From Methanomassiliicoccales archaeon UBA147 (GTDB lineage: Archaea > Thermoplasmatota > Thermoplasmata > SG8-5): a DNA stretch of 64,000 nucleotides. The notes beneath the pieces are model-generated. The model was given only the letters and a program-made list of their open reading frames with translations. It had not been told where the DNA came from and searched no databases. The position numbers and the translations under genes were made by a program. Shown here piece after piece: positions 441-51,748 of this stretch. Each line of letters begins with the position of its first letter. Within the stretch, counting starts at the first letter, position 1. The stretch is taken from positions 3,651 through 67,650 of the forward strand of contig DAJR01000023.1 in the NCBI GenBank assembly GCA_002496385.1, given 5' to 3'.

Positions 441-1241
441 ATGGTAGGGACATGGAATAAAAGAGAATTGATTCGGAATACCTTGTTTTGCACATTATGC
501 ATTGTTTTTTTACTGCTATCCATACTTCCACAATCAGTACTTGCAGACACCTGCCCAACATGTTATGGAGACGGTACGGTAGATAGAACATGCACAACGT
601 GTGGTGGCGACGGGATAATTACTCAAGATTATTCTTACACAGAAGTTGAGGAAAATGCCTGGATTAGTGGGATCATAAACAAATATGTAAATGTAGATGT
701 AACGGTAATGAATAATGAATACTCGGCAGGAACCTTCATTCTTCAGGTAACCGCATATGATGACGACGGAAACACATACACAGGTTCCAAATCAGAAGCT
801 ATTAGTGGTGGAACGATGAAAAAAATTAGCGTCGTTATACAGGTTCCTGGAAATTTATTTAGCTCAAGCTCATTTAGATATACCGCATCAATAGATCCGC
901 CGACGAAAAGCATATCATGCACTGCATGTGGCGGTGATGGTACAATTGATTCAATCTGTACTACCTGCGGTGGTGATGGTGAGGTATCTGGTTCAACATG
1001 GGATGACGATCCATATGACTCTTATGGTGAGGATACGGATTGGGAACCTATACTTTGCATCTCAGGAATTATTCTAGTGATTGTCATAATTGCTAGTGTT
1101 GCATATGCCGCCACACGAAAAAAGAATACCAACGTACCACCGCCTCCACCCGTCCAACAAAATGCCTCGCAGAGATATTGCGCAGGATGTGGAAGAATTA
1201 TTCCGCCAGACAGTATTATGTGCCCGTATTGTGGAAGATAA
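441..1241 (+). CDS. Membrane-anchored protein with two pairs of DnaJ-type CxxCxGDG zinc-finger motifs flanking a beta-rich domain, one TM helix, Pro-rich linker and C-terminal CxxC..CxxC zinc ribbon
   Basis: N-terminal hydrophobic segment (LFCTLCIVFLLLSIL). Motifs CPTCYGDG, CTTCGGDG, CTACGGDG, CTTCGGDG; TM ILCISGIILVIVIIASVAYAA; PPPPPV; CAGCG..CPYCG. The gene is markedly AT-rich relative to the rest of the window. Confidence 0.6.
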   Translation: MVGTWNKRELIRNTLFCTLCIVFLLLSILPQSVLADTCPTCYGDGTVDRTCTTCGGDGIITQDYSYTEVEENAWISGIINKYVNVDVTVMNNEYSAGTFILQVTAYDDDGNTYTGSKSEAISGGTMKKISVVIQVPGNLFSSSSFRYTASIDPPTKSISCTACGGDGTIDSICTTCGGDGEVSGSTWDDDPYDSYGEDTDWEPILCISGIILVIVIIASVAYAATRKKNTNVPPPPPVQQNASQRYCAGCGRIIPPDSIMCPYCGR

Positions 1242-1253
1242 TCGGCATAATTA

Positions 1254-1796
1254 TTAAAAATCATCCACCATCACCCTCAGCATGCCCGGCACCGCCCCAA
1301 TCGCCGTCGCCGTCTCCATCGAGATGCCTTTCTGAGTTATGTCCAGGTGGTATTTTCCGATTTTGAAAATATCCTTGGGCAACCCATGCGGGCCCAGCCC
1401 GAACAGCAGGAGGACTGATTGTCCACTTTTCACCATGTCGGCCACCTTCCTCGGGGTCACCGAGCACCCCGGCTCCGGTTTCCTGGTGGTGATGATGACC
1501 TCGCCGAACTGCGGGGGAAATCCTTTGGCCGGTTTATCGAAGATTGAAAATCGCCCTGCCTTGGCCAGCTCAATCAAATATTCCCCCCCATCCCCGATCG
1601 TGGTGGTTGTCGAAAGCCACTCGACAATTTCCTGGGGCGTGCGCATTTCCTTCTCATAAGGGAATCCGAATGTGGCAAGGTTGCAGCCGAATGCGAGGGC
1701 CACAGGTCCGGACCTGGCCAGCACCCGGCGGTGCGCCTCGCGAAACTTGTTGGGGTCATAGGTGTTGTAGAGTCCGATCGTCATCCTTCCGGGCAT
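1254..1796 (-). CDS. Conserved hypothetical protein (possibly SPOUT-like fold); start taken at the internal Met of the longer annotated ORF
   Basis: The upstream part of ORF 1254..2426 is antisense to folD and looks spurious. Protein-like sequence begins at MPGRMTIGLYNTYDP. C-terminal SVLLLFGLGPHGLPKD resembles a SPOUT motif-III-like glycine loop. Function not recognised with confidence. Confidence 0.45.
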   Translation of the reverse strand: MPGRMTIGLYNTYDPNKFREAHRRVLARSGPVALAFGCNLATFGFPYEKEMRTPQEIVEWLSTTTTIGDGGEYLIELAKAGRFSIFDKPAKGFPPQFGEVIITTRKPEPGCSVTPRKVADMVKSGQSVLLLFGLGPHGLPKDIFKIGKYHLDITQKGISMETATAIGAVPGMLRVMVDDF

Positions 1797-1847
1797 GAGG
1801 CACCCCATTCCCAATGTTAAAATAGACTTTTCTCCTATTCCGGCGGG

Positions 1848-2744
1848 ATGACGGCGAAGATCATTGATGGAAAGGACACCGCCCAGGAAATCATGGAGGG
1901 GCTGAAGCCACGGATAGGCGCTTTGGTGAAGAAAGGAATATACCCCGGTCTCAGCGTGATAATCCTCGGAGAGGACCCCGCGTCGCTGTCCTATGTGAAA
2001 AGCAAGGGCAAGGCATGCGAGAAACTGGGCATGCGCTCGGAGACCATCATGCTCTCCGAAAAGACAACACAGGCCGACCTCATGACAGTGATTCGAAATC
2101 TCAATGCCAACCCCAAGGTCCACGGCATACTGGTGCAGCTTCCCCTGCCCAAGCATATCGACGAGGACGCCGTCCTGGAAGCCATCGATCCTGAGAAGGA
2201 CGTGGATGGCTTTTCCCCTATCAACATGGGCCGCCTTCTCGCGGGGCGCGATTGTTTCAAGCCATGCACGCCGAACGGCGTCATGGAGCTCATGGCCAGG
2301 CACGGGATCGACCCTGCGGGAAAGCATGCAGTGATACTCGGCCGCAGCAATATCGTGGGCAAGCCCATGGCCGCGCTCCTTGTCCAGAAGAAGAAAGGCG
2401 CCGATGCCACCGTCACCATTTGCCATTCCCGAACAAAAAACATTGCCGCGTTGACGAAGAAAGCAGACATCCTGATTGCAGCCATCGGCCGCCCCGAATT
2501 CGTGAAGGCTGCCATGGTGAAGAAAGGCGCCGTCGTGATAGACGTGGGGATAAATCGCGTCGAAGATAAAGCGGCGGAGAAGGGCTACAGGCTGGTCGGC
2601 GATGTGGATTTTGAAGCGGTCAAGGACGTGGCGAAGGCCATCACCCCAGTCCCGGGCGGCGTCGGCCGCATGACGATCGCCATGCTCATGCTCAACACAG
2701 TCCAGGCTGCCGAGAATCTGTCAGGCAGGAATCGCGGGCTATAA
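1848..2744 (+). CDS. folD: Bifunctional 5,10-methylene-tetrahydrofolate dehydrogenase/cyclohydrolase
   Basis: Full-length similarity to FolD: KVHGILVQLPLP, DVDGFSP.NMGRLL, GRSNIVGKPMA, PVPGGVGRMT. Confidence 0.9.
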   Translation: MTAKIIDGKDTAQEIMEGLKPRIGALVKKGIYPGLSVIILGEDPASLSYVKSKGKACEKLGMRSETIMLSEKTTQADLMTVIRNLNANPKVHGILVQLPLPKHIDEDAVLEAIDPEKDVDGFSPINMGRLLAGRDCFKPCTPNGVMELMARHGIDPAGKHAVILGRSNIVGKPMAALLVQKKKGADATVTICHSRTKNIAALTKKADILIAAIGRPEFVKAAMVKKGAVVIDVGINRVEDKAAEKGYRLVGDVDFEAVKDVAKAITPVPGGVGRMTIAMLMLNTVQAAENLSGRNRGL

Positions 2745-2784
2745 GTTTTTAAACCCCGAAATCCATATACCATCGGGGCGAATA

Positions 2785-3132
2785 ATGGCAGATATGCGTC
2801 TTAAGGTTGTGGCTAGCAGCATCGACGGAAAAGGCATCGCAAAGCTGGACAGCGACAGCTGCCGCTCGCTGAAACTCGGGGATGGCCAGCAGATCATCGT
2901 TACCTATGGCGCTAAATCCCTGGAGCTTTTTGCGAAGCCGGACACGGTCTTTTCCCCTGCCACCATCCGGCTGATGAAGGTTGACATGAACACGCTGCGG
3001 GTAGAAACCGGCATGGAGGTCACCATTGCCAAGAAGAACGGCAGCGTCCCCGCGGAAAAGCCTGCCAAGGCCCCGAAGGGAAAAGGAAAGAAGAAGTCCA
3101 AGGCCAACGCAGCATCGCTTGACAGGTTCTGA
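2785..3132 (+). CDS. Stand-alone CDC48/VAT N-terminal (double-psi beta-barrel)-like domain protein with Lys-rich tail
   Basis: LKVVASSIDGKGIAKLDSDSCRSLKLGDGQQIIVTYG ... TIRLMKVDMNTLRVETGMEVTI matches the VAT-N pattern (LRV.EA...D.GRGIARID....LG...GD.V.I.G). Tail KAPKGKGKKKSK. Confidence 0.5.
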   Translation: MADMRLKVVASSIDGKGIAKLDSDSCRSLKLGDGQQIIVTYGAKSLELFAKPDTVFSPATIRLMKVDMNTLRVETGMEVTIAKKNGSVPAEKPAKAPKGKGKKKSKANAASLDRF

Positions 3133-3135
3133 ATA

Positions 3136-4188
3136 TTAAACAGTGTCTCCCTTTTTAATGCTCTTCAGGTCGTCTCCGGACCAGTCGTACACAAGGCGCT
3201 TCCTGCCCTTCCAGACTCCCTTCTGGAGAAGGTATCCGACAAGGAGAGGCAAAGCGATGGTCGCTTCCATGTTCACGGTCCGGTGCGTCGCGTCGGTGTG
3301 TACCTTGCCCCAGCTCTGCGCCTCCTCGAGCGTCGAGCCCGAGAGTCCGCCCCAGTGTGGCGAGTCCGTCGTCACCTGGATTGCGTAAGAATGCCCGTCG
3401 ATGCCCCTGTCGAACGTGTAGTTGGCCATGACCACCGCGTCATTCACCCAGTTCTTCGGCGTGCCGCCGCCGATGTATATCGCTGCGGTCTTCTTCGACA
3501 TGGCGATTATCTTGAGTATCTCGTAATTGTCCTTAATGGAGTCCAGCGTGACCCTCTGCTTCTTTAGGTTGTCCTTGTAGTACACCGTGAGGCCGATGCC
3601 GATGGAGGAGTCGTTCAGCGCCGGGGAGAACACCGGGACCCCGTACTTCCTGGCAGTGTGGAGGATCGAACTCTCATCGTCCGTAATGGAGCCCATAAAA
3701 TCGAGGATCTGGCGACTGGAGTAGAGCCCCGGCTTGAGCTTCTTCTCCAGCATCTTTCCGATGTATTTGTCGGTTTTTTCGAACATGTCCTCGTCCACAT
3801 ATGTGTCGTATATCCTGTCGATTTTCAGGTCATGGAGAACCTTGTCGTCCGCTGTCGGCGTGCCGACATAATGCTGACCGCCCATAGCCTGGTAAAAGTC
3901 CTGGTACATCACCGCGCCGGTGCTGGCGATCGCGTCCACAAGTCCATACTTAATCATGTCGCGGATGACCTTCCTCATCCCGCCCGCTATCAGGGCGCCG
4001 GAGAGCCCTACGATTATCGTGGGGCGCTCTTTGTCCATGAGCATTTTCTCCCAGACCCTGGCGCATATCCCCAGGTTGCGGCTCTGTATGCTGCTTCCCT
4101 GGAATGCGGTGACCAGCTGGTCTATTGTCTGGATGCGTTCCATGTCTATCTGGTTGACCGGGGTGCGAAGTATGTCCGACTTCTTCAT
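3136..4188 (-). CDS. dys: Deoxyhypusine synthase
   Basis: DHS family features (IIVGLSGALIAGGMR, IYIGGGTPKNW, HWGGLSGST). Start chosen at MKKSD; the alternative upstream ATG is at 4224. Confidence 0.85.
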   Translation of the reverse strand: MKKSDILRTPVNQIDMERIQTIDQLVTAFQGSSIQSRNLGICARVWEKMLMDKERPTIIVGLSGALIAGGMRKVIRDMIKYGLVDAIASTGAVMYQDFYQAMGGQHYVGTPTADDKVLHDLKIDRIYDTYVDEDMFEKTDKYIGKMLEKKLKPGLYSSRQILDFMGSITDDESSILHTARKYGVPVFSPALNDSSIGIGLTVYYKDNLKKQRVTLDSIKDNYEILKIIAMSKKTAAIYIGGGTPKNWVNDAVVMANYTFDRGIDGHSYAIQVTTDSPHWGGLSGSTLEEAQSWGKVHTDATHRTVNMEATIALPLLVGYLLQKGVWKGRKRLVYDWSGDDLKSIKKGDTV

Positions 4189-4340
4189 GGTAAAAGTCCT
4201 TCCATAAACCATTATCAAACTCACATATTTAGTGTTTATCCAAGTGTAACAAAATTTATTAAACCGCAGAGGCTACTGACCCCGGCCAACCCCGAGAGCG
4301 CAATCATCCGGAATTCTGCGGAAGGGGGCGGAGGTTCATC

Positions 4341-5885
4341 ATGGCATCGGTCAAGAACGCGGTAGGCCGCGAAATCCCAACGGAGCTGGAAGGTCGAAAG
4401 CTGAAGCCCTATCGGGGTCTTTTCAAAACATACCCGAGGGGCAGGAAGGCCGCAGGCTATTTCGGGAGGAACAAACCCGGGGACAGGAAGCTTCTGGAAT
4501 CCATCGATGAGGCGATACACGCATGCAAACTGAAGGACGGCCAGACAGTGAGCTTTCACCATCACCTCAGGGACGGCGATTATGTCGTGAACATGGTGAT
4601 GAAGGCAATCGCTGAGCATGGGCTCAGGGACATGGTGGTCGCACCGTCGGCTCTGTTCCCCTGCCATGAGCCGCTCGTGGAATTGATAGACCAAGGGGTC
4701 ATCCGCAGCATCGAGGGAAGCGTCAACGGTCCCATCGGGGATGCGATTTCCCATGGGCGCATGAAAGGCCTCAACATCCTCAGGTCGCACGGTGGCCGCG
4801 TCAGGGCAATAGAATCCGGCGAGCTCAAGATCGACGTTGCGTTCGTTGGCGCACCGACTGCAGACGCCCAGGGAAACATGAACGCCCTGCACGGGAAGAG
4901 CGCATGCGGGTTCCTGGGATATGCCGTTGCAGACTCCATATTCGCGAAAAAGGTGGTGGCAATAACGGACAATCTGGTGGATTACCCGGCACTTCCGATA
5001 CAGATCGCAGCCGATTACGTGGATTATGTGGTGAGCGTGCCCAGCATCGGGGATAACCAGAAGATAGTCTCTGGCACCACCAAGATCGCCACCGACCCGC
5101 AGAAGACAGGGATTGCAATGGCGGCCCTGGACCTGATGGTTCATGCAGGGATGGTAAAGGACGGAATGTCCTACCAGGCCGGGGCGGGCGGCATATCGCT
5201 CGCCACCACGAAGTTCCTTGGCGACTACATGAAGGCGCACAACATCGTCGCAGCATGGATGGACGGCGGCGTGACCGAGCACCTTATCCAGATACAGAGG
5301 AACGGCAACTGCAAGGCGATCCTCAACGGCCAGAGCTTTGACGTGCTCAGCGTGACAGACATGCTGACCAACCCCAACCATGTCCCGATAACCCCCAACT
5401 ACTATGCCAATCCCTGGAACAAGGGCGCGCTCGTCAACATACTGGACACAGTCGTTCTCGGGGGCACGGAAGCAGACATCGACTTCAACATCAATGTCAA
5501 CACCCATTCCGACGGCAGGCTGCTCCACGGCATAGGCGGGCACCAGGACACGGCAGCCGGTGCCAAGCTATCTATCATGATGATGCCGGTTTTCCGCAAG
5601 ACCAACGCCATCATCCGGGACCGCGTGACTACAGTTTCAGCGCCCCACCATTCAGTCGATGCCATTGTGACCGACCAGGGCATCGCAGTCAATCCAGCCA
5701 GGAAGGACCTGCTGAAGAAGCTCAGGGGCAGCCCGGTGAAGCTGGTGGACATAAAGGAACTTAGAGACATTGCTTACGCTGAGGCCGGAAAGCCCGAAGA
5801 ACCCCATTACCTGGACAGGATCGTTTCCGCGGTCCAGTTCAGGGACGGTACCTATCTCGATGTGATAAGACAGGTGAAGGAGTAA
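4341..5885 (+). CDS. citF: Citrate lyase alpha-subunit homolog (citrate CoA-transferase, CitF family)
   Basis: Collinear with E. coli CitF from memory: GQTVSFHHHLRDGDYVVNMVM, SHGGRVRAIESGELKIDVAFVGAP, DHGIAVNPAR, C-terminal FRDGTYLDVIRQVKE. Confidence 0.85.
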   Translation: MASVKNAVGREIPTELEGRKLKPYRGLFKTYPRGRKAAGYFGRNKPGDRKLLESIDEAIHACKLKDGQTVSFHHHLRDGDYVVNMVMKAIAEHGLRDMVVAPSALFPCHEPLVELIDQGVIRSIEGSVNGPIGDAISHGRMKGLNILRSHGGRVRAIESGELKIDVAFVGAPTADAQGNMNALHGKSACGFLGYAVADSIFAKKVVAITDNLVDYPALPIQIAADYVDYVVSVPSIGDNQKIVSGTTKIATDPQKTGIAMAALDLMVHAGMVKDGMSYQAGAGGISLATTKFLGDYMKAHNIVAAWMDGGVTEHLIQIQRNGNCKAILNGQSFDVLSVTDMLTNPNHVPITPNYYANPWNKGALVNILDTVVLGGTEADIDFNINVNTHSDGRLLHGIGGHQDTAAGAKLSIMMMPVFRKTNAIIRDRVTTVSAPHHSVDAIVTDQGIAVNPARKDLLKKLRGSPVKLVDIKELRDIAYAEAGKPEEPHYLDRIVSAVQFRDGTYLDVIRQVKE

Positions 5886-5889
5886 TCAG

Positions 5890-6960
5890 ATGGCCGAGAA
5901 ATGGGACACCAAGATAACAAGGGTCGAGCCGGACCGCCTGCTGATATACGGCTATCCGCTCAAGGACCTTGTCGAGCGCAAGACCCTCCTGGACGTGGCC
6001 CATCTCCTTGCAGCCGGCGACCTGCCCGACGTGAGGACCCGCGAGCAGTTACGGAAGATTGCACTCCAGGGCGCGATGCTCCCCTCTCCGCCGGTCGAGA
6101 GGAATCCCAAGGAGGACATCTCCAAGAGCCTGGCCAAATGCATCCTGATGGACGAGGAGCTGGTCGCATACCCCGACCGTCCCACCAAGAAGACAGCCTT
6201 CGCACTCGGCAGGATGGCCCGTTACCTTGCCAAACTGAACAATGCCGAATCGGCCATCGCCGATCTAACTGGTGACGAGGCCTTCTCCATAGTCCTATAC
6301 AAGGTTTTCACCGGCCGGCCCGAGACCGATGCCGCCAAAGCAAGGCTTTTGGAGGCGATGATAACGGCATGCGTGGACCACGGCGTCACGCCCCCGTCAG
6401 CCCAGGCGACCATAATCGCATCGTCCACCAGGGCGTCCTTCGAGGTTTGCATAGCCCAGGGCGTCGGCGCCATAACCGATGTTCACGGCGGCGCAGGGAC
6501 CAAAGCCGCAGCTTTCTTCTGGGAATGCACCGAGAACTCGCGCGATGTCAGCCTCAAATCAATAATCGAGGACTATGCCAGGCAGAAGAAGCGCATACCC
6601 GGGTTGGGGCACAGGGTCCACAACAACGACCCCCGGCGCGATGTACTCTGGAATCTGGCAATCGCCTCCAAGGTAGCGGGTGCCAATGTCGAGATGTCAA
6701 GGAACATATCCAGGGTGTTCACCGAGGTCACGGGAAAGAGCCTCCCCATCAATGTCGACGGGGTAATCGGGGCGATCGTGGCCGACCTCCGCCTGGACCT
6801 TTCCGCGGCGAAGTCCGTGTTCATACTCGGCAGGGTGGCGGGCCTATCAGCACACCACTATGAGGAACTCACCCGGCCTCAGATGAGACAGATCTCATTC
6901 GAGGATGCGGTTTACAAAGGCCCCGGCGAAAGGGCGGTGCCCGGGGGGGTATTGTTATAG
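5890..6960 (+). CDS. Citrate synthase-family short homolog (citryl-CoA lyase-like, CCL)
   Basis: Citrate-synthase catalytic signatures GLGHRVHNNDPR and DVHGGAG (cf. G.GHRVY..DPR and HGGANE). At 356 aa it is shorter than a canonical citrate synthase. Confidence 0.7.
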   Translation: MAEKWDTKITRVEPDRLLIYGYPLKDLVERKTLLDVAHLLAAGDLPDVRTREQLRKIALQGAMLPSPPVERNPKEDISKSLAKCILMDEELVAYPDRPTKKTAFALGRMARYLAKLNNAESAIADLTGDEAFSIVLYKVFTGRPETDAAKARLLEAMITACVDHGVTPPSAQATIIASSTRASFEVCIAQGVGAITDVHGGAGTKAAAFFWECTENSRDVSLKSIIEDYARQKKRIPGLGHRVHNNDPRRDVLWNLAIASKVAGANVEMSRNISRVFTEVTGKSLPINVDGVIGAIVADLRLDLSAAKSVFILGRVAGLSAHHYEELTRPQMRQISFEDAVYKGPGERAVPGGVLL

Positions 6961-6965
6961 AGCAG

Positions 6966-8846
6966 ATGAACCCGCTGAAGCACTGGATGTCAATGTATCC
7001 CGACAAGTTCGCGGAAGAAGACAGGATATTCAGCGGCATCCACAGGGGGGACCGCATATTCATAGGAACGGCCTGCGCCGAGCCCCAATACCTTGTCCAG
7101 GCCTTCATCAATTACATCGAGAGGAACCCGAACCAGATATTCGACGCCGAGATATTCAATGTCTGGACATTGGGAGTCGCCCCCTACAACGATGCCAAGT
7201 TCAAGAACAATTTCCGCCAGAATTCATTCTTTATATCGGCCAGTACCAGGGAAGCAGTGAACGAGGGGCTTGCAGATTACACCCCCACATTCCTCTCCGA
7301 AATCCCCGAGCTATTCAGAAAGCGGGCGATACCTCTCGACGTGGCCCTTGTCCAAACCACCCCGCCGGACCGGCACGGGTTCATGAGCTTCGGCGTAAGC
7401 GTGGACATAGTCAAGGCCGCGGTGGACGCCGCCACAGTTGTGATTGTCCAGGTAAACCCGGCCATGCCCCGTACCCACGGGGACGGGTACATCCACATTA
7501 GCCAGGTGGATTACGTCATCATCCGCGAAGAGCCCATCCTCACATACCTTGACGACGCGGACGACGACATAGCCCACAAGATAGGCAGCTATGTTTCCAA
7601 GCTAGTGGAGGACGGGGACACCATCCAGGTAGGCTACGGCGCCCTGCCCAATGAAATTTTGCGCAACCTCAAGGACAAGAAGCACCTGGGGATTCACACC
7701 GAGCTGATAAGCGACGGCCTGGTCGAGCTGATACAGGCCGGCGCGGTCGACAATTCCATGAAGACCATCAACAAGGGCAAGTCGGTCGCCACTTTCTGCA
7801 TGGGGACCAAGTCGGTGTATGACTTTGTCCACGATAATCCCTCAGTCCAGTTCAGGACCATAGATTACACCAATGACCCGCTGATTATTGCCCAGCACGA
7901 CAACATGGTCGCCATCAACAGCGCCCTGGAGATAGACCTCACTGGCCAGGCGACGGCCGAGTCCCTCGGAAAGAAATTCTACAGCAGCGTGGGGGGCCAG
8001 GCAGATTTCATGAGGGGCGCGATGCTGGCAAGAAACGGAAAGACCATTCTGACCATACAATCGACCGCCGACAACGGCAACATTTCAAGGGTCGTGCCAT
8101 ACCTCAAGGAAGGGGCCAGCGTCACACTCCACCGCGGCGATGTCCACTACGTCATCACGGAATACGGGATTGCATACCTGCACGGCAAGAACATCCGCGA
8201 GAGGGCGATGGAACTCATCTCGGTCGCGCACCCGAAGTTCCGCCCGGAGCTGATAAAACAGGCGAAGGCGCTCAACCTAATCTACAGCGACCAGGCATTC
8301 ATTCCCGGGAAGAAGGGCGAGTACCCCGAAGCGCTGGAAACCTACAGGACCACCGACCAAGGCCTGGAGATTCTTCTCAGGCCGGTGAAGATGAGCGACG
8401 AACCGCTCGTGAAGGAGTTCTTCTACGACCTGTCTGACAAGAGCATGTACAGGCGTTTTCTCTCTGTGAGGAAGGATATGCCCCACGAACGCCTTCAGGA
8501 ATTCGTGATAATCAACTACATGAAAGAGATGGTGATCGTCGCAACCGTCGGGAGCGAGGGCAAGGAGAAGATAGTCGGCATAAGTCAGTACGGCATCAAC
8601 GAGGGCACGCACACCGCGGAGGCCGCGTTCGTTGTTAGGGACGACTACCACGGAAAGGGCGTGGGCCATGAACTGCTCAAGTACCTCACCTATCTGGCAA
8701 AGAAGAACGGCCTGCTCGGGTTCACCGCCGAGGTGCTCGTCGAGAACACACCGATGCTCAGGCTGTTCGAGAAGATGGGCTTCAACATCGAGAAGCGCTC
8801 CAGCTCCGGCGTTTACGAGATGAAGATGCTGTTCAGGGAGGCCTGA
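6966..8846 (+). CDS. Acetyl-CoA hydrolase/transferase-family CoA-transferase domain fused to a C-terminal GNAT acetyltransferase domain
   Basis: The N-terminal ~430 aa resemble the 4-hydroxybutyrate/succinyl-CoA:acetate CoA-transferase family. The C-terminal ~160 aa carry GNAT features (RRFLSVRKD.., VVRDDYHGKGVGHELLKYL, FEKMGF). Confidence 0.7.
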   Translation: MNPLKHWMSMYPDKFAEEDRIFSGIHRGDRIFIGTACAEPQYLVQAFINYIERNPNQIFDAEIFNVWTLGVAPYNDAKFKNNFRQNSFFISASTREAVNEGLADYTPTFLSEIPELFRKRAIPLDVALVQTTPPDRHGFMSFGVSVDIVKAAVDAATVVIVQVNPAMPRTHGDGYIHISQVDYVIIREEPILTYLDDADDDIAHKIGSYVSKLVEDGDTIQVGYGALPNEILRNLKDKKHLGIHTELISDGLVELIQAGAVDNSMKTINKGKSVATFCMGTKSVYDFVHDNPSVQFRTIDYTNDPLIIAQHDNMVAINSALEIDLTGQATAESLGKKFYSSVGGQADFMRGAMLARNGKTILTIQSTADNGNISRVVPYLKEGASVTLHRGDVHYVITEYGIAYLHGKNIRERAMELISVAHPKFRPELIKQAKALNLIYSDQAFIPGKKGEYPEALETYRTTDQGLEILLRPVKMSDEPLVKEFFYDLSDKSMYRRFLSVRKDMPHERLQEFVIINYMKEMVIVATVGSEGKEKIVGISQYGINEGTHTAEAAFVVRDDYHGKGVGHELLKYLTYLAKKNGLLGFTAEVLVENTPMLRLFEKMGFNIEKRSSSGVYEMKMLFREA

Positions 8847-8848
8847 AC

Positions 8849-10978
8849 ATGGACCTCCCCGACATCAAATACCTCTTCGAGCCGAGGTCTGTCGCGGTCA
8901 TAGGCGCTTCCGGGGAGAAGAACAAGGTCGGCTGCAAGCTCATGGAGAACATGATGTCCATGGACTTCAAGGGGAAGATATATCCAGTCAACATCAAGGG
9001 CGGCGACATCATGGGGCTGAAGGTCTGCACGGACCTGGGGGAGATAGAAGGCCCGGTTGACATGGCCGTGATAGCCATACCCGCGAAATTCGTCTTCGGC
9101 GCAGTCGAGTCCTGCGCAAAGAAAGGCGTGAAGTTCCTTGTCATAATCACCTCGGGCTTCTCCGAGGTCGGGAACAATGCCGAAGAGAGGAGGATCGTCG
9201 AATACGCGCACCAACATGGGATGCGGGTCCTGGGTCCCAACATATTCGGGATATACTCGGGGAAGGTCGGCCTCAACGCCACTTTCGGTCCCAGGGACGT
9301 GAACCGGGGCAATGTTGCAATAGTGACCCAGAGCGGCGCCCTGGGCATCGCGATGATAGGCAAGACCGCCACGGAGAACATTGGCCTGAGCACGATAGTC
9401 TCGGTCGGCAACAAAGCGGACATTGAAGAGGCCGAACTGCTGGAATACCTGATTGACGACGACCAGACCAAGATCATCATGCTCTACATCGAGGGAGTTC
9501 ACAGGGGCGAGAGTATGGTCGCCCTCCTAAAGAAGGCCACCAAGAGGAAGCCAGTGATAGTCATCAAGTCCGGAAGGTCAAAGAGGGGTGCGCTGGCGGC
9601 GGCCTCGCACACCGGCGCGCTTGCCGGGGCGGACGAGATATTCGACTCCATAATGAAGCAGTGCGGCGTGCTACGGGCCGAGAGCCTCCAGGAGGCCTTC
9701 AACTGGTGCAAGTTCCTTGCCAACACACCTGTTCCGAAGGGCAGGAGCACCGTGATAATCACGAACGGCGGCGGCGTGGGGGTGATGGCGACCGATGCCT
9801 GCGAGAAGCACAAGGTCGACCTGTTCGACGACGCCGTCGCCACCAAGGAGATATTCGGCTCAGTCACCCCGGACTTCGGATCCACGAAGAACCCCATCGA
9901 TATCACTGGCCAGGCATTGGCCCATCATTACGACGGCGGCCTGGGCGCCGCCCTCAGGGACGAACGGATAAATGCGGTTATCGCACTGTACTGCCAGACC
10001 GCTGATTTCGACAGGACAACTTACGTCAATATGATAATGAAGAATGTCAAGGAGTACAGGGAAGGCGGCAAGCCCATAGTATTCTCGCTGGTCGGCGGCG
10101 AGGAGGTCGAGAACTGCATCAGGGAGCTCAGGCGCTCTGGCGCTCCTGTATTCGGTGATGTTTATGAAGCGGTCCAATGCTTCGGAGCACTGTTCAGGCA
10201 CCATGACCATCTCTCTCGCTCGGCCGAAGAGCCAGAGGAGCCTGACATGGATGTCGGATGCATGCATGACATAATATCCGGCGTCAGGGCGGATGGGCGC
10301 ACCTTCCTGCTCTCCCATGAGGCCCAGGCACTGATGAACGCAGCGGGAATCCCAGTCCCTCAGAGCAAGATAGCCGCCAACATCAGGGAGGCAATAGAGT
10401 TCGCAGAGAAAATCGGGTACCCTGTGGTCATGAAGATCGCTTCGAAGGACATCATACACAAGAGCGATGCGGGCGGCGTGGCGCTCGACCTTCTGAACAA
10501 GGAGGAGGTCATGGACGCCTACCAGGCCATCATCCGCAATGCGAGGAAATACAAGCCGGACGCAGTGATAAAGGGCGTCGAGATAGTCAGGATGATAGAG
10601 AAGGGCACAGAGACCATCATAGGTGCGAGGAGGGACAGGGCATTCGGCCCTGTCATCATGTTCGGGCTGGGCGGGATATACGTGGAGGTGCTGAAGGACG
10701 TGGCATTCCGCGCCCTACCGCTGGACCGCAGGGAGATAATAAGCATGCTCAAGGACATCCGCTCCTACTCCCTGCTGCTCGGGGTCCGCGGGGAAACCCA
10801 GCGCGACATCGGGAGCATCGTCGACACAATAATTAAATTGGGGAAGGTCATACGAAAATGCGGGGATATTTCGGACATCGAGATAAACCCGCTCGCGGTC
10901 TACGAGCAGGGGCAGGGCGCCATGGCGGTAGACGTCAGGATATTACTGGGTGACAGCAACAGGGGTGAAAAGAAATGA
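8849..10978 (+). CDS. acd: Acetyl-CoA synthetase (ADP-forming), fused alpha/beta (NDP-forming acyl-CoA synthetase)
   Basis: CoA-binding N-terminus (PRSVAVIGAS), ligase-CoA and succinyl-CoA-synthetase-like flavodoxin domains, C-terminal ATP-grasp (GYPVVMKIAS..HKSDAGGV). Start is 3 nt after the previous stop. Confidence 0.85.
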   Translation: MDLPDIKYLFEPRSVAVIGASGEKNKVGCKLMENMMSMDFKGKIYPVNIKGGDIMGLKVCTDLGEIEGPVDMAVIAIPAKFVFGAVESCAKKGVKFLVIITSGFSEVGNNAEERRIVEYAHQHGMRVLGPNIFGIYSGKVGLNATFGPRDVNRGNVAIVTQSGALGIAMIGKTATENIGLSTIVSVGNKADIEEAELLEYLIDDDQTKIIMLYIEGVHRGESMVALLKKATKRKPVIVIKSGRSKRGALAAASHTGALAGADEIFDSIMKQCGVLRAESLQEAFNWCKFLANTPVPKGRSTVIITNGGGVGVMATDACEKHKVDLFDDAVATKEIFGSVTPDFGSTKNPIDITGQALAHHYDGGLGAALRDERINAVIALYCQTADFDRTTYVNMIMKNVKEYREGGKPIVFSLVGGEEVENCIRELRRSGAPVFGDVYEAVQCFGALFRHHDHLSRSAEEPEEPDMDVGCMHDIISGVRADGRTFLLSHEAQALMNAAGIPVPQSKIAANIREAIEFAEKIGYPVVMKIASKDIIHKSDAGGVALDLLNKEEVMDAYQAIIRNARKYKPDAVIKGVEIVRMIEKGTETIIGARRDRAFGPVIMFGLGGIYVEVLKDVAFRALPLDRREIISMLKDIRSYSLLLGVRGETQRDIGSIVDTIIKLGKVIRKCGDISDIEINPLAVYEQGQGAMAVDVRILLGDSNRGEKK

Positions 10979-12009
10979 AACCAAGAATCGTGTTCGCATC
11001 AATGAGCGAGAGCGCGGGAAAGACCAGCATGATAGTCGGGCTCGGCAGGGCGCTGGGAAAGAGGATCGGATACATGAAGCCGATGGGCGACCGCCTCCTC
11101 TACCAGAAGAAGCGGCTCTGGGACTATGATTCCGCGCTGGTCACCAACATTTTCGGACTGAAGGGCAAGCCCGAGGATATCACAATGGGCTTCGAGCATT
11201 CCAAGCTCGGCTATATGTACGACGATGATGCCAGGAAGAAAAAGCTACTCGAAATCGCATCGGCGATCGAAAAGGACTGCGACATCCTGTTCGTGGAATC
11301 CGGGCGGAACCTCCGTTACGGTAGTTCGGTCAACCTGGATGCCATCTCAGTCGCCAAGGACCTGGATGCGAAGCTGGTGATAGTCCTGGCCGGCACCGAT
11401 GATACGATGATGGACGACATCGCCTTCATAAAGCGAACAGTCAACCATCAGGGCGTCAAGCTGATGGGCGTGATCATAAACAAAGTTGCGGATGCCGATG
11501 ACTTCACGGCGACGCATGTGGATGCCATCAAGGCAACCGGGATAGACGTGCTCGGCATGATCCCCCACCAGGAAACACTCACCCAGTTCTCGATGAACTA
11601 CCTGGCTGACATGCTGTTCGCAAAGGTGCTTGCCGGCGACGACGAGCTTCTCAAACCCGTGAAGAACATATTTGTGGGTGCAATGTCTGCGTCAGCCGCC
11701 CAGAGGGAGCCGGCCTTCAAGAAGGAAGGGAAACTGATAATCACCAGCGGCGACAGGAGCGATATCATTCTTGCGGCGTTGGAATCCGACACGGCCGGTA
11801 TAGTCCTCACAAACAACATCCTCCCGTCATCCAACATAATTTCCAAGGCGGCATCGGTCAAGATCCCTCTCTTGCTGGTCCACACGGACACCTTCCTCGT
11901 GGCCAAGCAGGTGGACGACGCCGTCCCGCTTTTGACAAAGGACAGCACGGCCAAGATAGAATTGCTCGAGCAAACCGCGCAGAAGCTGGCCCTTGACAAG
12001 TTCAGATAA
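10975..12009 (+). CDS. Phosphotransacetylase N-terminal-like protein (BioD/P-loop-like + DRTGG domain), no Pta catalytic domain
   Basis: ATGA overlap with acd. P-loop-like ESAGKTSM, then a DRTGG-type region (LIITSGDRSDI.., GIVLTNN). Confidence 0.65.
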   Translation: MKPRIVFASMSESAGKTSMIVGLGRALGKRIGYMKPMGDRLLYQKKRLWDYDSALVTNIFGLKGKPEDITMGFEHSKLGYMYDDDARKKKLLEIASAIEKDCDILFVESGRNLRYGSSVNLDAISVAKDLDAKLVIVLAGTDDTMMDDIAFIKRTVNHQGVKLMGVIINKVADADDFTATHVDAIKATGIDVLGMIPHQETLTQFSMNYLADMLFAKVLAGDDELLKPVKNIFVGAMSASAAQREPAFKKEGKLIITSGDRSDIILAALESDTAGIVLTNNILPSSNIISKAASVKIPLLLVHTDTFLVAKQVDDAVPLLTKDSTAKIELLEQTAQKLALDKFR

Positions 12010-12014
12010 ACGGT

Positions 12015-12554
12015 CTATCTGCCCGGCGGAATGAAATCGTGCAAATCCGCAATCTGCGGATTGCGCTTGCCCTCCGTGACAAGGCACATGTTGACATCTA
12101 TCATCACAGGCTTGTCAAGGAGATGGTCGTCATATATCATCCTTAGGGTGTCGTAATAGCGCCTGGCAGTCGCGTGGTCTGGCGCGGAGAACCTGAGCAC
12201 CCAATCGAACTCCCCGTTGACATAGAAGAAATTGGTCAGCCGCACATTCTGCTTCTTCGGCCCTTCCCCGACCAGCCGCATCAGCAGCGTGTTAACCAGT
12301 CCCTCGTTCATGGGCTTGGTCTTCATCAGCACTATGTAGCATACATGGCCCAGCCGCTTCTCGTCCAGGACCGCAGTGTAGCCCCAGATGACCCCGTCGT
12401 CCTCCAGTTGCTTCTTCTTGCGCCATACTTTCTGGCGGTATGTCCCGAGGTCCCTGGCTATCTCCATATCGCTCCTTGTCGGGTCCTCCAGCAGGGCGGC
12501 CACTATCCTGTTGTCCAGACTCTCTTTTTTACCGACCGTCTCATTTTCAGTCAT
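12015..12554 (-). CDS. Lrp/AsnC-family transcriptional regulator
   Basis: N-terminal HTH (LDNRIVAALLEDPTRSDMEIARDLG) plus RAM/ACT-like C-terminal domain. Convergent with the citrate/acetate operon. Confidence 0.8.
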   Translation of the reverse strand: MTENETVGKKESLDNRIVAALLEDPTRSDMEIARDLGTYRQKVWRKKKQLEDDGVIWGYTAVLDEKRLGHVCYIVLMKTKPMNEGLVNTLLMRLVGEGPKKQNVRLTNFFYVNGEFDWVLRFSAPDHATARRYYDTLRMIYDDHLLDKPVMIDVNMCLVTEGKRNPQIADLHDFIPPGR

Positions 12555-16808: not shown

Positions 16809-17753
16809 CTGAAGACGTCCCTTGCCTATGGCCCGGTACCTTCAAGGAGGTTCGGGCGCTCGATAGGGGTGAGCCCCATTCCTCCCAAGGCTTGCACCTA
16901 CTCATGCATATATTGCCAGCTCGGACACACTACCGATCTGAGAGTGGCGAGGGACAGGTTCTTCGATCCCGCCCGGATTGAAAATGACATCGAAACCGCG
17001 GTTCTGGCCTGTAAAGAGAAAGCGGATTTCATAACGATGGTCGGAGACGGAGAGCCAATATTGTCCACGGACATCGGCCGGCTGATATCATACTGCAAGC
17101 GCCGATGGGACATCCCGGTAGGCGTGATAACCAACGGCTCACTGCTCTGGGATAACGAGGTAAGAAGCCAGCTTCATGAGGCAGACATTGTCTCAGTGAC
17201 TGTTTCCGCCGGCGAGGAGTCCGAGTTCAGGAAGATACACAGGCCGCATGGTAAACTGAAATTTCAAAAGGTAATGGACGGGATGCGTGAGTTCAGGAAA
17301 GATTTCAATGGAAAATTATGGGCGGAGGTCATGCTGGTCGCAGGCCTGAATGACTCAGACGGGGTTCTGCATTCAATCAAGGAACAATTGGATTCAATAT
17401 CCCCTGACAAAATCTTCATCGCAACGCCCACGAGACCGCCGGCCGAGAGCTGGGTAAGGCCGCCCGGAACCGACAGCATCCTGAACGCCGCCGCCATCCT
17501 CAACGGGTCGATAGAGATGACATTGCCGGAAACTGGAAACTTCGCAATAACCGGCGACGTAAAACATATTTCTGATACGATATTGCAGTTATGTTCCAGG
17601 CATCCGATGATGGAGCACCAGCTTAGGGAGATAGAGGGGCAATTGGACACGATATTCGTGGACGGGATGATTGCGGATGGGCTTGTGATATGGAAACCGC
17701 ATATGGGCATCCGATACCTTGTGCCAAATAATATGAAAGGGAGGCAAACATAA
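16809..17753 (+). CDS. Radical SAM protein (COG0731-like); start placed at a non-canonical CTG, the only canonical start being GTG 16869
   Basis: CTYSCIYC (CxxxCxxC). In frame upstream of GTG 16869 lies LKTSLAYGPVPSRRFGRSIG, matching the family's conserved N-terminus (..FGPVPSRRLGRSLG..). It is bounded by TGA at 16800 and has no ATG/GTG/TTG. A GAGGGGG SD-like sequence sits just before CTG 16809. Confidence 0.7.
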   Translation: MKTSLAYGPVPSRRFGRSIGVSPIPPKACTYSCIYCQLGHTTDLRVARDRFFDPARIENDIETAVLACKEKADFITMVGDGEPILSTDIGRLISYCKRRWDIPVGVITNGSLLWDNEVRSQLHEADIVSVTVSAGEESEFRKIHRPHGKLKFQKVMDGMREFRKDFNGKLWAEVMLVAGLNDSDGVLHSIKEQLDSISPDKIFIATPTRPPAESWVRPPGTDSILNAAAILNGSIEMTLPETGNFAITGDVKHISDTILQLCSRHPMMEHQLREIEGQLDTIFVDGMIADGLVIWKPHMGIRYLVPNNMKGRQT

Positions 17754-18595
17754 TGGGCATGAAAATTGCAATAGCAAGCGGCAAGGGCGGGACAGGCAAG
17801 ACAACCGTGGCGGTGAACCTGGCGCTGAGCCTGGGGAATGTCCAGCTCATCGACTGCGATGTGGAGAATCCGAACGGCCACCTGTTCCTGGGAAAGGAAC
17901 TGGAAGAGGTAGAACCCGTGAATCTGACTGTACCGCTCATAGACAAGGCAAAATGCACGAACTGCGGGAAGTGCGCCGAGTTCTGCCGCTACAACGCTCT
18001 GGTCACGATCAAACAGGCCACACTTTTCTTCCCGGAGATGTGCCACGGCTGCGGCGGCTGCACCCTGGTCTGCCCGGAGAACGCCATCAGCGAAGTTCCC
18101 AGGCCCATCGGCAAGATTTACCATGCAGATGTCGCGGGGATGGATTTCTGGTCAGGGCTGCTGAACATAGGCGAGCCCATGGCCACGCCTGTCATAAAGC
18201 GGCTGAAATACCATGTCGCTGCCTCGAGAACCGTGATACTGGACTCCCCCCCGGGCACTGCCTGCCCGGTGATTGAAACCATGTCCGACGCAGATTTTGT
18301 GATACTTGTAACCGAGCCCACACCATTCGGCCTTCACGACCTGAAACTGGCCGTCGAAGTGGTCCGGCTTCTGGGAATTCCCTTCGGCGTGATAGTTAAC
18401 CGCATGGGCTCGGGAGACGACAGGGTCCAGAGGCACTGCGGGGAAGAGGGCATTGAAGTCCTGATGGAGATACCCCAGGACCAGGGCATAGCCAGGCTTT
18501 ACTCGAAAGGCACGCCCTTCGTGCAGGAAATGCCCGAATGGAAGGCCAAGTTCAGGGACCTCCATGCTGGGATAATGAAGGTGGTGGGACAATGA
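17753..18595 (+). CDS. MinD/ParA-superfamily P-loop ATPase with embedded 2x[4Fe-4S] ferredoxin domain
   Basis: GKGGTGKTT; CTNCGKCAEFC and CHGCGGCTLVCP; TAATG overlap with the preceding gene. Confidence 0.75.
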   Translation: MGMKIAIASGKGGTGKTTVAVNLALSLGNVQLIDCDVENPNGHLFLGKELEEVEPVNLTVPLIDKAKCTNCGKCAEFCRYNALVTIKQATLFFPEMCHGCGGCTLVCPENAISEVPRPIGKIYHADVAGMDFWSGLLNIGEPMATPVIKRLKYHVAASRTVILDSPPGTACPVIETMSDADFVILVTEPTPFGLHDLKLAVEVVRLLGIPFGVIVNRMGSGDDRVQRHCGEEGIEVLMEIPQDQGIARLYSKGTPFVQEMPEWKAKFRDLHAGIMKVVGQ

Positions 18596-42465: not shown

Positions 42466-42469
42466 TAAT

Positions 42470-43993: not shown

Positions 43994-44029
43994 ATTGACA
44001 AGTTGAATTGAGGATGTTACTGGACCGGA

Positions 44030-45178: not shown

Positions 45179-45221
45179 CGGGTTGTCTGGTGTTGGGCGC
45201 TCTTGAGAAACGTAGAATATC

Positions 45222-46367: not shown

Positions 46368-46425
46368 GCAAATACACAGAATTATTGATATTTATATCTA
46401 TCGATTATTGAAACATGTTGATGGG

Positions 46426-47529: not shown

Positions 47530-47552
47530 GAGAATTATAAGAGGATTAAATA

Positions 47553-48659: not shown

Positions 48660-48857
48660 TCTTTAGTGCAACCGATTTTATATATATATGATTAACTAGT
48701 TGCAGATTTGCATCCAAAGCGCGAAAATGTCACTATCGAGAGTCAAGATTCATCGAATTCAAATCACAACGAGCAAATGTTATTATATCGCTCATTCATC
48801 CCTTCAACTGATGCTTAGCGTTCTACATTACTGGTGTTTTACATCGAAAGGAGGCAA

Positions 48858-49949: not shown

Positions 49950-49951
49950 AA

Positions 49952-51736: not shown

Positions 51737-51748
51737 GAAACCATTTAT

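Follow-up and report, generated by a model that had tools for sequence, protein, structure and literature searches.

Within the 64,000-nucleotide stretch of Methanomassiliicoccales archaeon UBA147 DNA that we analysed (hereafter, the window), a continuous ATG-started open reading frame encodes a 626-residue protein in which a family-I CoA-transferase is joined through a conserved linker to a Pat-type GNAT domain. It is followed on the same strand by genes for an ADP-forming acyl-CoA synthetase (ACD) and for an AAA_26/DRTGG protein, and together with two upstream genes these form a local operon (Table 1). The preliminary description of this DNA had read the central gene as a CoA-transferase-family domain fused to a GNAT, and both the open reading frame and the Pfam matches bear this out: AcetylCoA_hydro (PF02550) covers residues 10–191 (1.1e-49), AcetylCoA_hyd_C (PF13336) residues 280–433 (1.2e-64) and Acetyltransf_1 residues 515–606 (1.2e-12), with additional matches to Acetyltransf_3, Acetyltransf_7 and Acetyltransf_4, all of them far above their gathering scores. 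No NCBIfam equivalog model scores the protein above its trusted cut-off. The possibility that a frameshift, mis-assembly or read-through artificially joined two genes is refuted by the continuity of the reading frame, by the record of a 100% identical protein on 6 contigs, and by hundreds of full-length homologues with the same architecture from independent assemblies, which include at least 120 clusters among those listed and all 80 genome loci that we inspected, wherever the contig was long enough.

Table 1 Features of the fusion gene and its neighbourhood, in window coordinates.
Feature	Position	Strand	Description	Basis or remark
CitF-type citrate CoA-transferase	4341..5885	+	first gene of the local operon	TIGR01584, 559 bits against a cut-off of 501
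Citrate-synthase-family protein, citryl-CoA-lyase-like	5890..6960	+	lineage-specific context	Pfam Citrate_synt, 5.9e-40
Fusion gene	6966..8846	+	family-I CoA-transferase, conserved linker and Pat-type GNAT; 626 aa	ORF (exactly this interval), Pfam, PDB relatives
CoA-transferase half	6966..8285	+	about residues 1-440; 4-hydroxybutyrate / butyryl-CoA:acetate CoA-transferase clade	PDB relatives
Glu246 codon (HTEL motif)	7701..7703	+	predicted nucleophile	aligns with AbfT (3gk7) position 238 and RipA Glu249
GGQADF motif	7992..8009	+	residues 343-348; GxGG-type CoA-transferase motif	conserved in solved 4-HB CoA-transferases
Inter-domain linker	8265..8375	+	residues 434-470; includes YPxxLE	near-invariant across phyla
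Pat-type GNAT domain	8319..8843	+	about residues 452-626	solved relatives, NCBIfam
Gating segment LSDKSMYRRFLSVRKDMP	8430..8483	+	residues 489-506	homologous to PatZ gating motif 746-763 (alpha1-alpha2)
Glu552 codon	8619..8621	+	counterpart of PatZ Glu809, proposed as catalytic	invariant in the 18-sequence alignment
GNAT motif A / P-loop HGKGVG	8649..8666	+	residues 562-567	G565-V-G567 corresponds to PatZ G822-G824
ADP-forming acyl-CoA synthetase (ACD)	8849..10978	+	fused alpha-beta; 709 aa	Pfam; 8wzu at 3.6e-148
AAA_26 + DRTGG protein	10975..12009	+	344 aa; homologue of class II phosphotransacetylase (regulatory N-terminal half)	Pfam
AsnC-type HTH regulator	12015..12554	-	convergent with the operon	Pfam HTH_AsnC-type, HTH_24

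The transferase half (residues 2–437) matches two solved enzymes closely, 3eh7 from P. gingivalis (6.9e-120) and AbfT, 3gk7 (6.2e-110), and also aligns at full length to 2oas. Its score against TIGR03948, the model for butyryl-CoA:acetate CoA-transferase, is 303.6 bits with a cut-off of 674.8, so that family membership stands while the named specificity is not assignable. Alignment with AbfT, 3eh7 and Y. pestis RipA extends along the whole 430-residue two-domain enzyme, and all share the nucleophilic Glu and the GGQxDF motif with the fusion; the fusion differs in its additional 190 residues of linker and GNAT, and its gating-loop residue is Tyr (G-Y-G) whereas RipA has Val227. Glu322, within the sequence ALEIDL, was also considered as the nucleophile and was ruled out, given that the alignment to AbfT and RipA places the nucleophile at Glu246.

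We then examined an alignment of 18 homologues from Thermoplasmata, Asgard archaea, ANME, Bipolaricaulota, WOR-3, Desulfobacterota, Poribacteria and Anaerolineae, which has a mean column identity of 81%. Neither Glu246 nor the G-Y-G loop nor the GGQADF motif varies among the archaea and bacteria of this clade, which answers in the affirmative the question, raised in the preliminary description, of whether the catalytic Glu is conserved. Given the invariance of Glu246 and GGQADF, the transferase half of the window clade is probably an active enzyme and not a degenerate sensor. Across loci, identity to the window protein is 59–69% in the transferase half and 62–75% in the GNAT half, the latter being at least as conserved as the former. 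An AlphaFold2 model based on the same 18 sequences reached a pLDDT of 56.7 and a pTM of 0.47, values too poor for judging domain packing.

The closest solved relatives of the C-terminal domain are protein acetyltransferases of the Pat type: PatZ (9it0, 4.3e-18), SlPatA (4nxy, 7.8e-16), MtPat (4ava, 6.2e-13) and Sulfolobus Pat (3f8k, 1.8e-7). The NCBIfam model NF058543, named "acetyltransferase Pat", matches this half at 6.9e-21, below its cut-off. Whether the domain carries acetyl-CoA-binding motifs was another point on which the preliminary description depended, and here Glu552, the P-loop, K603 (aligned with PatZ K860) and the gating motif all align with PatZ. The role of the gating motif in PatZ has been described previously (PMC12184503), and its Y-x-R-F core is common to the fusion, PatZ, SlPatA and MtPat in our alignment. 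The first residue of the P-loop is His in the window lineage, where the canonical Arg/Gln-x-x-Gly-x-Gly/Ala has Gln or Arg; of 27 family representatives, 24 have Gln at this position, 2 His and 1 Arg. By this comparison the C-terminal domain belongs to the Pat-type GNATs and lacks none of their acetyl-CoA-binding or catalytic motifs. The resemblance extends into the linker, whose YPxxLE also occurs ahead of the GNAT in PatZ (aligned to residues 709–716), SlPatA and MtPat.

Among the closest known systems are E. coli PatZ, S. enterica Pat and S. lividans PatA, bacterial protein acetyltransferases of types I and II whose GNAT module is homologous to that of the fusion along its whole length and is likewise joined to a large (acyl-)CoA-binding domain, and in which an NDP-forming acyl-CoA-synthetase-type protein is also part of the system. 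The attached domain in these proteins is ACD-like, however, whereas in the fusion it is a family-I CoA-transferase that has kept its catalytic residues in the window clade. The ACD-type partner is here a separate, intact gene product with both H254 and H537, whereas PatZ has Asn at the first of these positions. Because the fusion polypeptide contains no ACD-like domain and the ACD is encoded by its own gene, the fusion is neither a type I nor a type II Pat.

The ACD gene starts 3 nt after the fusion stop codon, and its product contains the Pfam domains CoA_binding_2, Succ_CoA_lig, Ligase_CoA_2 and ATP-grasp_5. Both catalytic His residues are present, H254 in SHTGALAG and H537 in HKSDAGGV; they are conserved in 26/26 cassette ACDs and are also kept in ACDs linked to divergent fusions. 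The earlier view that the neighbour is a genuine ACD thus holds, and by sequence the enzyme is catalytically competent. We also considered whether this protein might represent a dead, Pat-like regulatory domain acting in trans, and reject this as regards catalysis given the conservation of both His residues. The residues with which PatZ binds Acs (N227/K228 and R395/Y398) are only partly matched in the cassette ACDs, with Lys at the 228 position in 24/26, a pattern that speaks neither for nor against such a role.

The start of the third cassette gene overlaps the ACD stop codon. Its product matches the Pta model NF004167 over positions 3–359 (of 708) at 1.6e-33 and has AAA_26 and DRTGG domains only; the PTA_PTB domain of a class II Pta is absent, and the protein is Pta-N-terminal-like rather than a Pta. 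The same AAA_26 + DRTGG architecture occurs in the N-terminal half of class II Pta and in the standalone D. vulgaris protein DVU3031, which is encoded beside pta-ack. The cassette protein differs from these in being without the PTA_PTB catalytic domain and in having ACD, instead of Pta-Ack, as its partner.

Conservation of this gene order was assessed beyond the window. An ACD lies directly downstream of the fusion on the same strand in 49/75 informative loci, and the AAA_26/DRTGG gene follows the ACD in 44 of these 49 cassettes; in two divergent fusion clades the order is reversed, with the ACD immediately upstream. The adjacency noted in the preliminary description is therefore not peculiar to this genome. 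In the other 26/75 informative loci the ACD is not adjacent, which indicates that GNAT function is not strictly dependent on that neighbour. Distance matrices of the fusion and the ACD are correlated (r=0.39, Mantel p=0.001), weakly in comparison with those of the ACD and the AAA_26/DRTGG protein, which co-evolve (r=0.91).

Other neighbours vary. When open reading frames from the 80 loci were clustered, no neighbour family apart from the ACD, the DRTGG protein and shadow ORFs occurred in more than about 12 loci, and neither deacetylases nor regulators were found as conserved neighbours. At 5/80 loci a gene for AMP-forming Acs is found no more than 10 kb from the fusion, a count that rises to 7 when other AMP-forming ligases are included; most of these loci have no ACD, and the association of the fusion with Acs is weak. 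In the rest of the window, no gene for Acs, a sirtuin or an HDAC was present among the large ORFs tested. CitF lies upstream of the fusion in only one of the 80 loci, that of the closest relative (L001), and linkage to CitF and the citryl-CoA-lyase-like gene is thus ruled out as a family-wide feature. The latter gene is matched best by NCBIfam models for citryl-CoA lyase, in every case below cut-off, and neither CitD nor CitE is present among the operon genes scanned, so the set does not constitute a CitDEF citrate lyase complex. L001 also carries an 85% identical copy of the AsnC-type regulator at the same position.

The fusion is matched in at least 589 species-level genomes of archaea and bacteria, with many divergent clades, and is concentrated in uncultivated anaerobes including Thermoplasmata, Asgard archaea, ANME, Syntrophales, Nitrospirota, Bipolaricaulota and Dehalococcoidia. 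The preliminary description had called for a census of the architecture, which on these numbers is very common; its database names are generic, as in [quoted passage not shown], "GNAT family N-acetyltransferase" and "acetyl-CoA hydrolase". The suggestion that the fusion had not been described is supported: a literature search for the fusion, the cassette and the DRTGG-ACD pair found no description, and the five-type GNAT classification contains no CoA-transferase type (PMC8556138, PMC12184503). ACDs are discussed in a paper on ANME acetogenesis and in one on Syntrophus Acs1, with the fusion gene absent from both.

The divergent clades show a different pattern of constraint in the two halves. 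Of 25 divergent CoA-transferase-GNAT cluster representatives, 4 carry Asp in place of the nucleophile, 3 carry Ile, Pro or Ser there, and about 9 have a degenerate GGxxDF. In the GNAT, the motifs of divergent fusions persist (N594 in 27/27, R497 in 27/27 and G565 in 26/27). This pattern indicates that the family has repeatedly tolerated the loss of transferase catalysis and not that of the GNAT, and in those clades that lost the transferase motifs it would fit a sensor role.

The best explanation for these results, to which we give a little better than an even chance, is that the fusion serves the acyl-CoA/acetate/ATP node as a bifunctional enzyme whose Pat-type domain acylates a pathway enzyme, either an AMP-forming Acs or the ACD; both enzyme activities, the formation of a complex and the identity of the acylated protein are what we infer here. 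The N-terminal half would carry out ping-pong CoA transfer through a Glu246-CoA thioester, with acetyl-CoA/acetate probably as one substrate pair, and the C-terminal half would be a catalytically competent Pat-type protein N-epsilon-lysine acyltransferase. The fusion would work with the co-translated ACD, itself partnered by the Pta-N-terminal-like AAA_26/DRTGG protein: the transferase would convert acyl-CoA and acetate to the acid and acetyl-CoA, and the ACD would convert acetyl-CoA, ADP and Pi to acetate, ATP and CoA, although the reverse direction may also be possible. The rigidly conserved linker would hold the GNAT beside the acyl-CoA-binding transferase, such that the GNAT could read the local acyl-CoA supply and acylate a lysine of a pathway enzyme.

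The metabolic part of this scheme would be analogous to the ASCT/SCS cycle of trypanosomatids and hydrogenosomes, in which a family-I CoA-transferase and an NDP-forming synthetase together turn acyl-CoA into acid and ATP (PMC12817287). It differs from that cycle in that the synthetase is an ACD-type, fused alpha-beta protein, in that the genes are operonic and prokaryotic, and in that the transferase additionally carries a protein acetyltransferase domain.

One may postulate an alternative scenario, already raised in the preliminary description as a swapped sensor domain, in which the transferase half has no catalytic role and serves as a regulatory domain, binding acyl-CoA and gating the GNAT allosterically. 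There is precedent in PatZ, where a CoA-binding regulatory domain activates the GNAT (PMC12184503), and the loss of the nucleophile and GGxxDF from some divergent representatives with intact GNAT motifs fits such a role; in those clades the suggestion may well stand. In the window clade it does not fare as well, given that archaea and bacteria alike keep Glu246, the G-Y-G loop and GGQADF unchanged and that this half is 59–69% identical even between phyla, a constraint on catalytic residues that would be unexpected for a mere ligand sensor. We therefore regard a pure sensor as unlikely for the window protein, with the caveat that the sensor and enzyme models are not exclusive and a catalytic transferase may double as a sensor.

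In a further scenario the fusion supplies itself, the transferase using a carboxylate and acetyl-CoA to form a specific acyl-CoA (butyryl-, 4-hydroxybutyryl-, propionyl- or lactyl-CoA, for example) that passes as donor directly to the fused GNAT, such that protein acylation would report carboxylate availability. Two active sites that look intact, an invariant linker between them and an adjacent ACD that could regenerate the acetyl-CoA donor are all consistent with this. The arrangement has a precedent in trans in E. coli, where the family-I CoA-transferase YdiF makes lactyl-CoA and the GNAT YiaC uses it for lysine lactylation (PMC9636275); YdiF and YiaC are separate, unlinked proteins of different subfamilies, however, whereas the fusion is one polypeptide in which donor channelling is hypothetical. 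The GNAT sequence gives no sign of an enlarged acyl pocket, and clades with a dead transferase nevertheless keep the GNAT, which argues against a universal dependence of the GNAT on acyl-CoA synthesis in cis. We consider this scenario very doubtful.

It is less probable again, and in our estimation highly unlikely, that the protein is a purely metabolic bifunctional enzyme whose GNAT N-acetylates a small-molecule amine, such as an amino acid, a polyamine or a pathway intermediate, rather than a protein. Many GNATs do take small molecules, and there are weak, lower-ranked profile matches to RimI, ArsN1, PseH and phosphinothricin acetyltransferases. The protein lysine acetyltransferases are closest by a wide margin, however (E values of 1e-18 to 1e-7, compared with 1e-5 for small-molecule GNATs), conservation extends to the Pat-specific gating motif and to the segment preceding the GNAT, and no amine-metabolism gene occurs among the conserved neighbours.

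Beyond the favoured bifunctional enzyme, the cassette could be a functioning relative of Pat in its ancestral state, with a GNAT served by an active ACD in trans and an active CoA-transferase in cis, acyl-CoA being made on the spot and lysine acylation reporting local carboxylate/acyl-CoA flux. Type I and type II Pat would then have arisen by fusion of a GNAT to an ACD followed by loss of the catalytic His, and the clades with a dead transferase would represent a parallel degeneration into a sensor. This proposal should be treated as tentative, as we find it distinctly unlikely.

Regulated prokaryotic lysine acetylation has so far been described by five GNAT architectures, all from cultivated bacteria, and the fusion adds a further, large class, in which a Pat-type GNAT sits on a different CoA-handling scaffold and is genetically tied to an enzyme that makes ATP from acetyl-CoA. 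It would also improve the annotation of a protein until now labelled generically. If the proposed mechanism is correct, it would show by what means acyl-CoA flux is coupled to enzyme acylation in fermentative and syntrophic archaea and bacteria; the family would contain within itself a natural series that runs from active enzymes to pseudo-enzyme sensors, and it would offer a testable route to the origin of the enigmatic dead ACD domain of Pat.

The gene that the preliminary description had read as a CoA-transferase (CoAT) joined to a GNAT is an uninterrupted open reading frame of 626 residues, in which Pfam places two CoA-transferase-family domains and Acetyltransf_1, all far over their gathering scores (see table), with Acetyltransf_3/7/4 matches backing up the GNAT assignment. 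An intact ADP-forming acyl-CoA synthetase (ACD) gene lies directly downstream, followed by one for an AAA_26/DRTGG protein; because the reading frame, the domains and the neighbouring genes were all found, that observation was correct, coordinates included. Upstream, gaps of 4-5 nt separate the genes for CitF, a citryl-CoA-lyase-like (CCL) protein and the fusion, and deoxyhypusine synthase and DUF531 genes lie near the operon. The DNA comes from an uncultured archaeon of the Thermoplasmata, and the nearest locus among those listed, L001 from a Thermoplasmata MAG, has the same gene order (a five-gene operon plus a convergent AsnC-type regulator), with proteins 73-90% identical.

Several other features of the window were recorded. 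The mechanically called DUF531 reading frame (1254-2426, -, 390 aa) overlaps the FolD gene (1848-2744, +); the match covers residues 214-385 only, so that the gene probably starts far downstream of its called position and overlaps FolD only through an artefact of ORF calling. At 16869-19455 (+), a radical-SAM gene precedes two paralogous CbiA/ParA-type P-loop proteins, both with an inserted 4Fe-4S ferredoxin domain. A low-GC island at ~42000-52000 (39-46% vs ~55-58% elsewhere in the window) sits inside a broader glycosyltransferase/polysaccharide-synthesis cluster (~34-56 kb) and probably represents a cluster of surface-glycan genes that is variable or was acquired horizontally.

[quoted passage not shown]
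Feature	Position	Strand	Remarks
CitF-type citrate CoA-transferase	4341-5885	+	upstream of fusion; over TIGR01584 cut-off
Citrate-synthase-family, CCL gene	5890-6960	+	upstream of fusion
Fusion gene	6966-8846	+	uninterrupted ORF, 626 residues
AcetylCoA_hydro in fusion	residues 10-191		Pfam E 1.1e-49
AcetylCoA_hyd_C in fusion	residues 280-433		Pfam E 1.2e-64
Acetyltransf_1 in fusion	residues 515-606		Pfam E 1.2e-12
ACD, fused alpha-beta, 709 aa	8849-10978	+	3 nt past fusion stop at 8846
AAA_26 + DRTGG protein, 344 aa	10975-12009	+	start overlaps ACD stop
Acs, locus L067	11550-13520	-	PKTRSGK motif
Acs, locus L051	3289-5259	-	PKTRSGK motif
Acs, locus L054	12211-14190	+	PKTRSGK motif
Acs, locus L037	5092-7056	+	PKTRSGK motif
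Acs, locus L012	253-2349	-	PKTRSGK motif

Residues 2-437 of the fusion can be aligned over their whole length with 4-hydroxybutyrate CoA-transferases of solved structure (3eh7, 6.9e-120; 3gk7, 6.2e-110) and likewise with Yersinia RipA. Glu246, in an HTEL motif, aligns with AbfT position 238 and RipA Glu249, the glutamate that makes the CoA thioester in family-I transferases, and a GGQADF motif occupies residues 343-348. With the expected fold, nucleophile and glycine motif, this half belongs to the 4-HB/butyryl clade of family-I CoA-transferases; the family assignment is clear, and no named specificity is reached by profile score (TIGR03948 303.6 bits vs a cut-off of 674.8, below the NCBIfam equivalog cut-offs).

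The C-terminal domain (residues 452-626) carries acetyl-CoA-binding motifs, bearing out its earlier reading as a GNAT, and its best relatives are protein lysine acetyltransferases: E. coli PatZ (4.3e-18), the S. lividans PatA GNAT (7.8e-16), M. tuberculosis Pat (6.2e-13) and Sulfolobus Pat (1.8e-7). Residues were matched to the PatZ structure paper (PMC12184503), in which Glu809 is the proposed catalytic residue, G822-G824 the phosphate loop and 746-763 the gating motif; these correspond to Glu552, G565-V-G567 and residues 489-506 (LSDKSMYRRFLSVRKDMP) of the fusion, K603 corresponds to K860, and a YPxxLE segment precedes the GNAT domain in both proteins. By sequence, the GNAT is of Pat type. 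When 18 full-length homologues, drawn from six groups of archaea and bacteria, are aligned, the columns average 81% identity, and the catalytic and motif residues of both halves (including Glu246, whose conservation the preliminary description had left to be checked) and linker 434-470 vary little or not at all, which makes each half look catalytically competent and under tight constraint. The AlphaFold2 model (pLDDT 56.7, pTM 0.47) scores too low for interdomain geometry to be read.

Five types of bacterial GNAT acetyltransferases are recognized, none of which has a CoA-transferase domain (2021 review PMC8556138; 2025 PatZ structure paper PMC12184503); type IV is GNAT only and type V has tandem GNATs. 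The defining fused, inactive ACD-like domain of type I and II Pats is absent, so the fusion is classed as neither; here the ACD is instead a separate, predicted active enzyme. The fusion would work like a Pat with its CoA-handling partner exchanged for another, and the CoAT half probably adds a second catalytic activity to a Pat-like protein. Full-text literature searches found no paper describing the CoAT-GNAT architecture or the ACD cassette, in keeping with the initial impression that the fusion is undescribed.

A word-indexed search returned at least 120 clusters, and all those listed are full-length fusions of at least 66% identity, from archaea (Thermoplasmata, Promethearchaeota, Theionarchaea, Methanoperedenaceae, Methanophagales) and bacteria (Bipolaricaulota, WOR-3, Poribacteria, Anaerolineae, Deltaproteobacteria). 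Scanning one genome per species with the C-terminal 227 residues confirmed at least 589 loci, almost all of those listed being MAGs of anaerobic lineages. The preliminary description would have been refuted had the fusion proved common and annotated as a simple CoA-transferase: common it is, but its annotation is not that of a simple CoA-transferase, the listed clusters bearing generic names ('GNAT family N-acetyltransferase', 'acetyl-CoA hydrolase', 'acyl-CoA hydrolase/GNAT superfamily N-acetyltransferase', 'bifunctional acetyl-CoA hydrolase/transferase family protein/GNAT family N-acetyltransferase'). Searching 1.84 billion cluster representatives with the GNAT alone gave 3276 relatives at E<=1e-10; we scanned the domains of 26 representatives of ~600 aa among the best 150, plus the window protein, and 25 of these 27 have AcetylCoA_hyd_C and a GNAT (the other two have another architecture), so many divergent CoAT-GNAT clades exist, with GNAT identity down to ~32%. 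One Deltaproteobacteria contig (L020) encodes two paralogues (800-2644 and 8804-10675), the second merely 33-38% identical to the window protein.

Gene context was surveyed by tblastn of the window operon proteins against 80 loci and by clustering all ORFs of these loci. The only recurrent neighbours were the ACD, which in 49 loci is the next gene downstream in the same orientation and in 26 is absent (four contigs were too short to score), and the DRTGG gene, which follows the ACD in 44/49 cassettes. Three Nitrospirota loci have a divergent ACD-DRTGG pair upstream, transcribed divergently, and in two remoter clades, at 44-45% identity to the window protein, an ACD is the immediate upstream neighbour. 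Both the alpha phosphohistidine (SHTG[AS]LAG) and the beta histidine (HK[ST]D) are conserved in all linked ACDs examined; the first of the two is Asn in E. coli PatZ. Comparison of pairwise-identity matrices over 29 complete cassettes gave a strong correlation between ACD and DRTGG protein (r=0.91), which co-evolve, and a weak but significant one between fusion and ACD (r=0.39, Mantel p=0.001). The DRTGG protein is a homologue of the N-terminal, regulatory half of class II phosphotransacetylase, has an N-terminal GKT-type P-loop (SESAGKTS) and shares its architecture with D. vulgaris DVU3031, which adjoins pta-ack (PMC4481167); such standalone proteins may be regulatory subunits of bacterial and archaeal ACDs. 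Two Spirochaetota cassettes (L035, 13018-15410; L038, 4749-7140) have this gene in two tandem copies after the ACD.

CitF and CCL accompany the fusion only in L001 among the 80 loci, and this linkage is therefore lineage-specific. The CitF-CCL-ACD operon (4341-10978, +; L001 counterpart 615-7243) has neither CitD nor CitE among its genes; on paper, the three activities sum to the ATP-citrate-lyase reaction and in reverse would make citrate, with the thioester conserved as ATP. No matching paper turned up when the literature was searched for CitF together with citryl-CoA lyase and an ADP-forming synthetase.

The two halves have fared differently across the family. In the 25 CoAT-GNAT sequences of the motif survey (the window protein and 24 divergent representatives; n=27 with the two of other architecture), the nucleophile position is Glu in 17, Asp in 4 and Ile/Pro/Ser in 3, and GGxxDF is degenerate in ~9 sequences. 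GNAT motifs are retained (Asn594, Arg497 and Gln/His/Arg562 27/27, Gly565 26/27, Glu/Asp552 25/27), and since they persist where CoAT motifs are lost, the GNAT is the constant part of the family. Clades with a replaced nucleophile (Ile/Pro/Ser/Asp) and/or degenerate GGxxDF include P0145 (L082, 2014-3909), which has no ACD neighbour, and P0242 (L086, 2114-4024); P0238, P0264, P0174, P0215 and P0261 belong to the same class. These clades look like enzyme-to-sensor degeneration: in places, the CoAT half has presumably decayed to a domain that binds ligand or serves as a scaffold, in parallel to the dead ACD domain of Pat.

The fusion thus carries two active sites, intact by sequence, in one polypeptide, and its association with an intact ACD and the DRTGG partner of that enzyme is conserved widely and, judging by gene spacing, coupled in translation. 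One explanation, which we favour with modest confidence, is a composite one: at the acetate/acyl-CoA/ATP node, transferase and ACD would together run a CoA-transferase/synthetase cycle comparable to the ASCT/SCS cycle mentioned in PMC12817287, and the GNAT would acylate a pathway-enzyme lysine when the transferase half binds or produces acyl-CoA. The target would be either the ACD itself or AMP-forming Acs, whose acylation would prevent futile cycling between ACD and Acs. Acs is the canonical substrate of Pat, and an Acs gene lies <=10 kb from the fusion in 5/80 loci, four of them without an adjacent ACD; neither a deacetylase nor an Acs gene was found among the large ORFs tested in the 64-kb window. 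The preliminary description's swapped sensor domain fits the divergent clades that have lost CoAT motifs while keeping those of the GNAT, but as a reading of the window's own clade, in which transferase catalytic residues are invariant, a non-catalytic, acyl-CoA-binding CoAT half is rather unlikely. That the CoAT half makes the acyl-CoA donor for its fused GNAT has a precedent in trans in the YdiF-YiaC lactylation system (PMC9636275) and seems quite improbable. Small-molecule acetylation is very improbable, as small-molecule GNATs match only near 1e-5 and protein acetyltransferases far better.

The CoAT-GNAT fusion is a real, widespread and uncharacterised architecture, best described as a variant of the Pat-type regulated acetyltransferases that sits within a conserved ACD cassette. 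Swapping of accessory domains is already established for GNATs, and the sequence family is already catalogued; of note are the predicted active-enzyme partner domain, the conserved ACD linkage, the enzyme-to-pseudoenzyme series within the family and a possible bearing on the origin of Pat.
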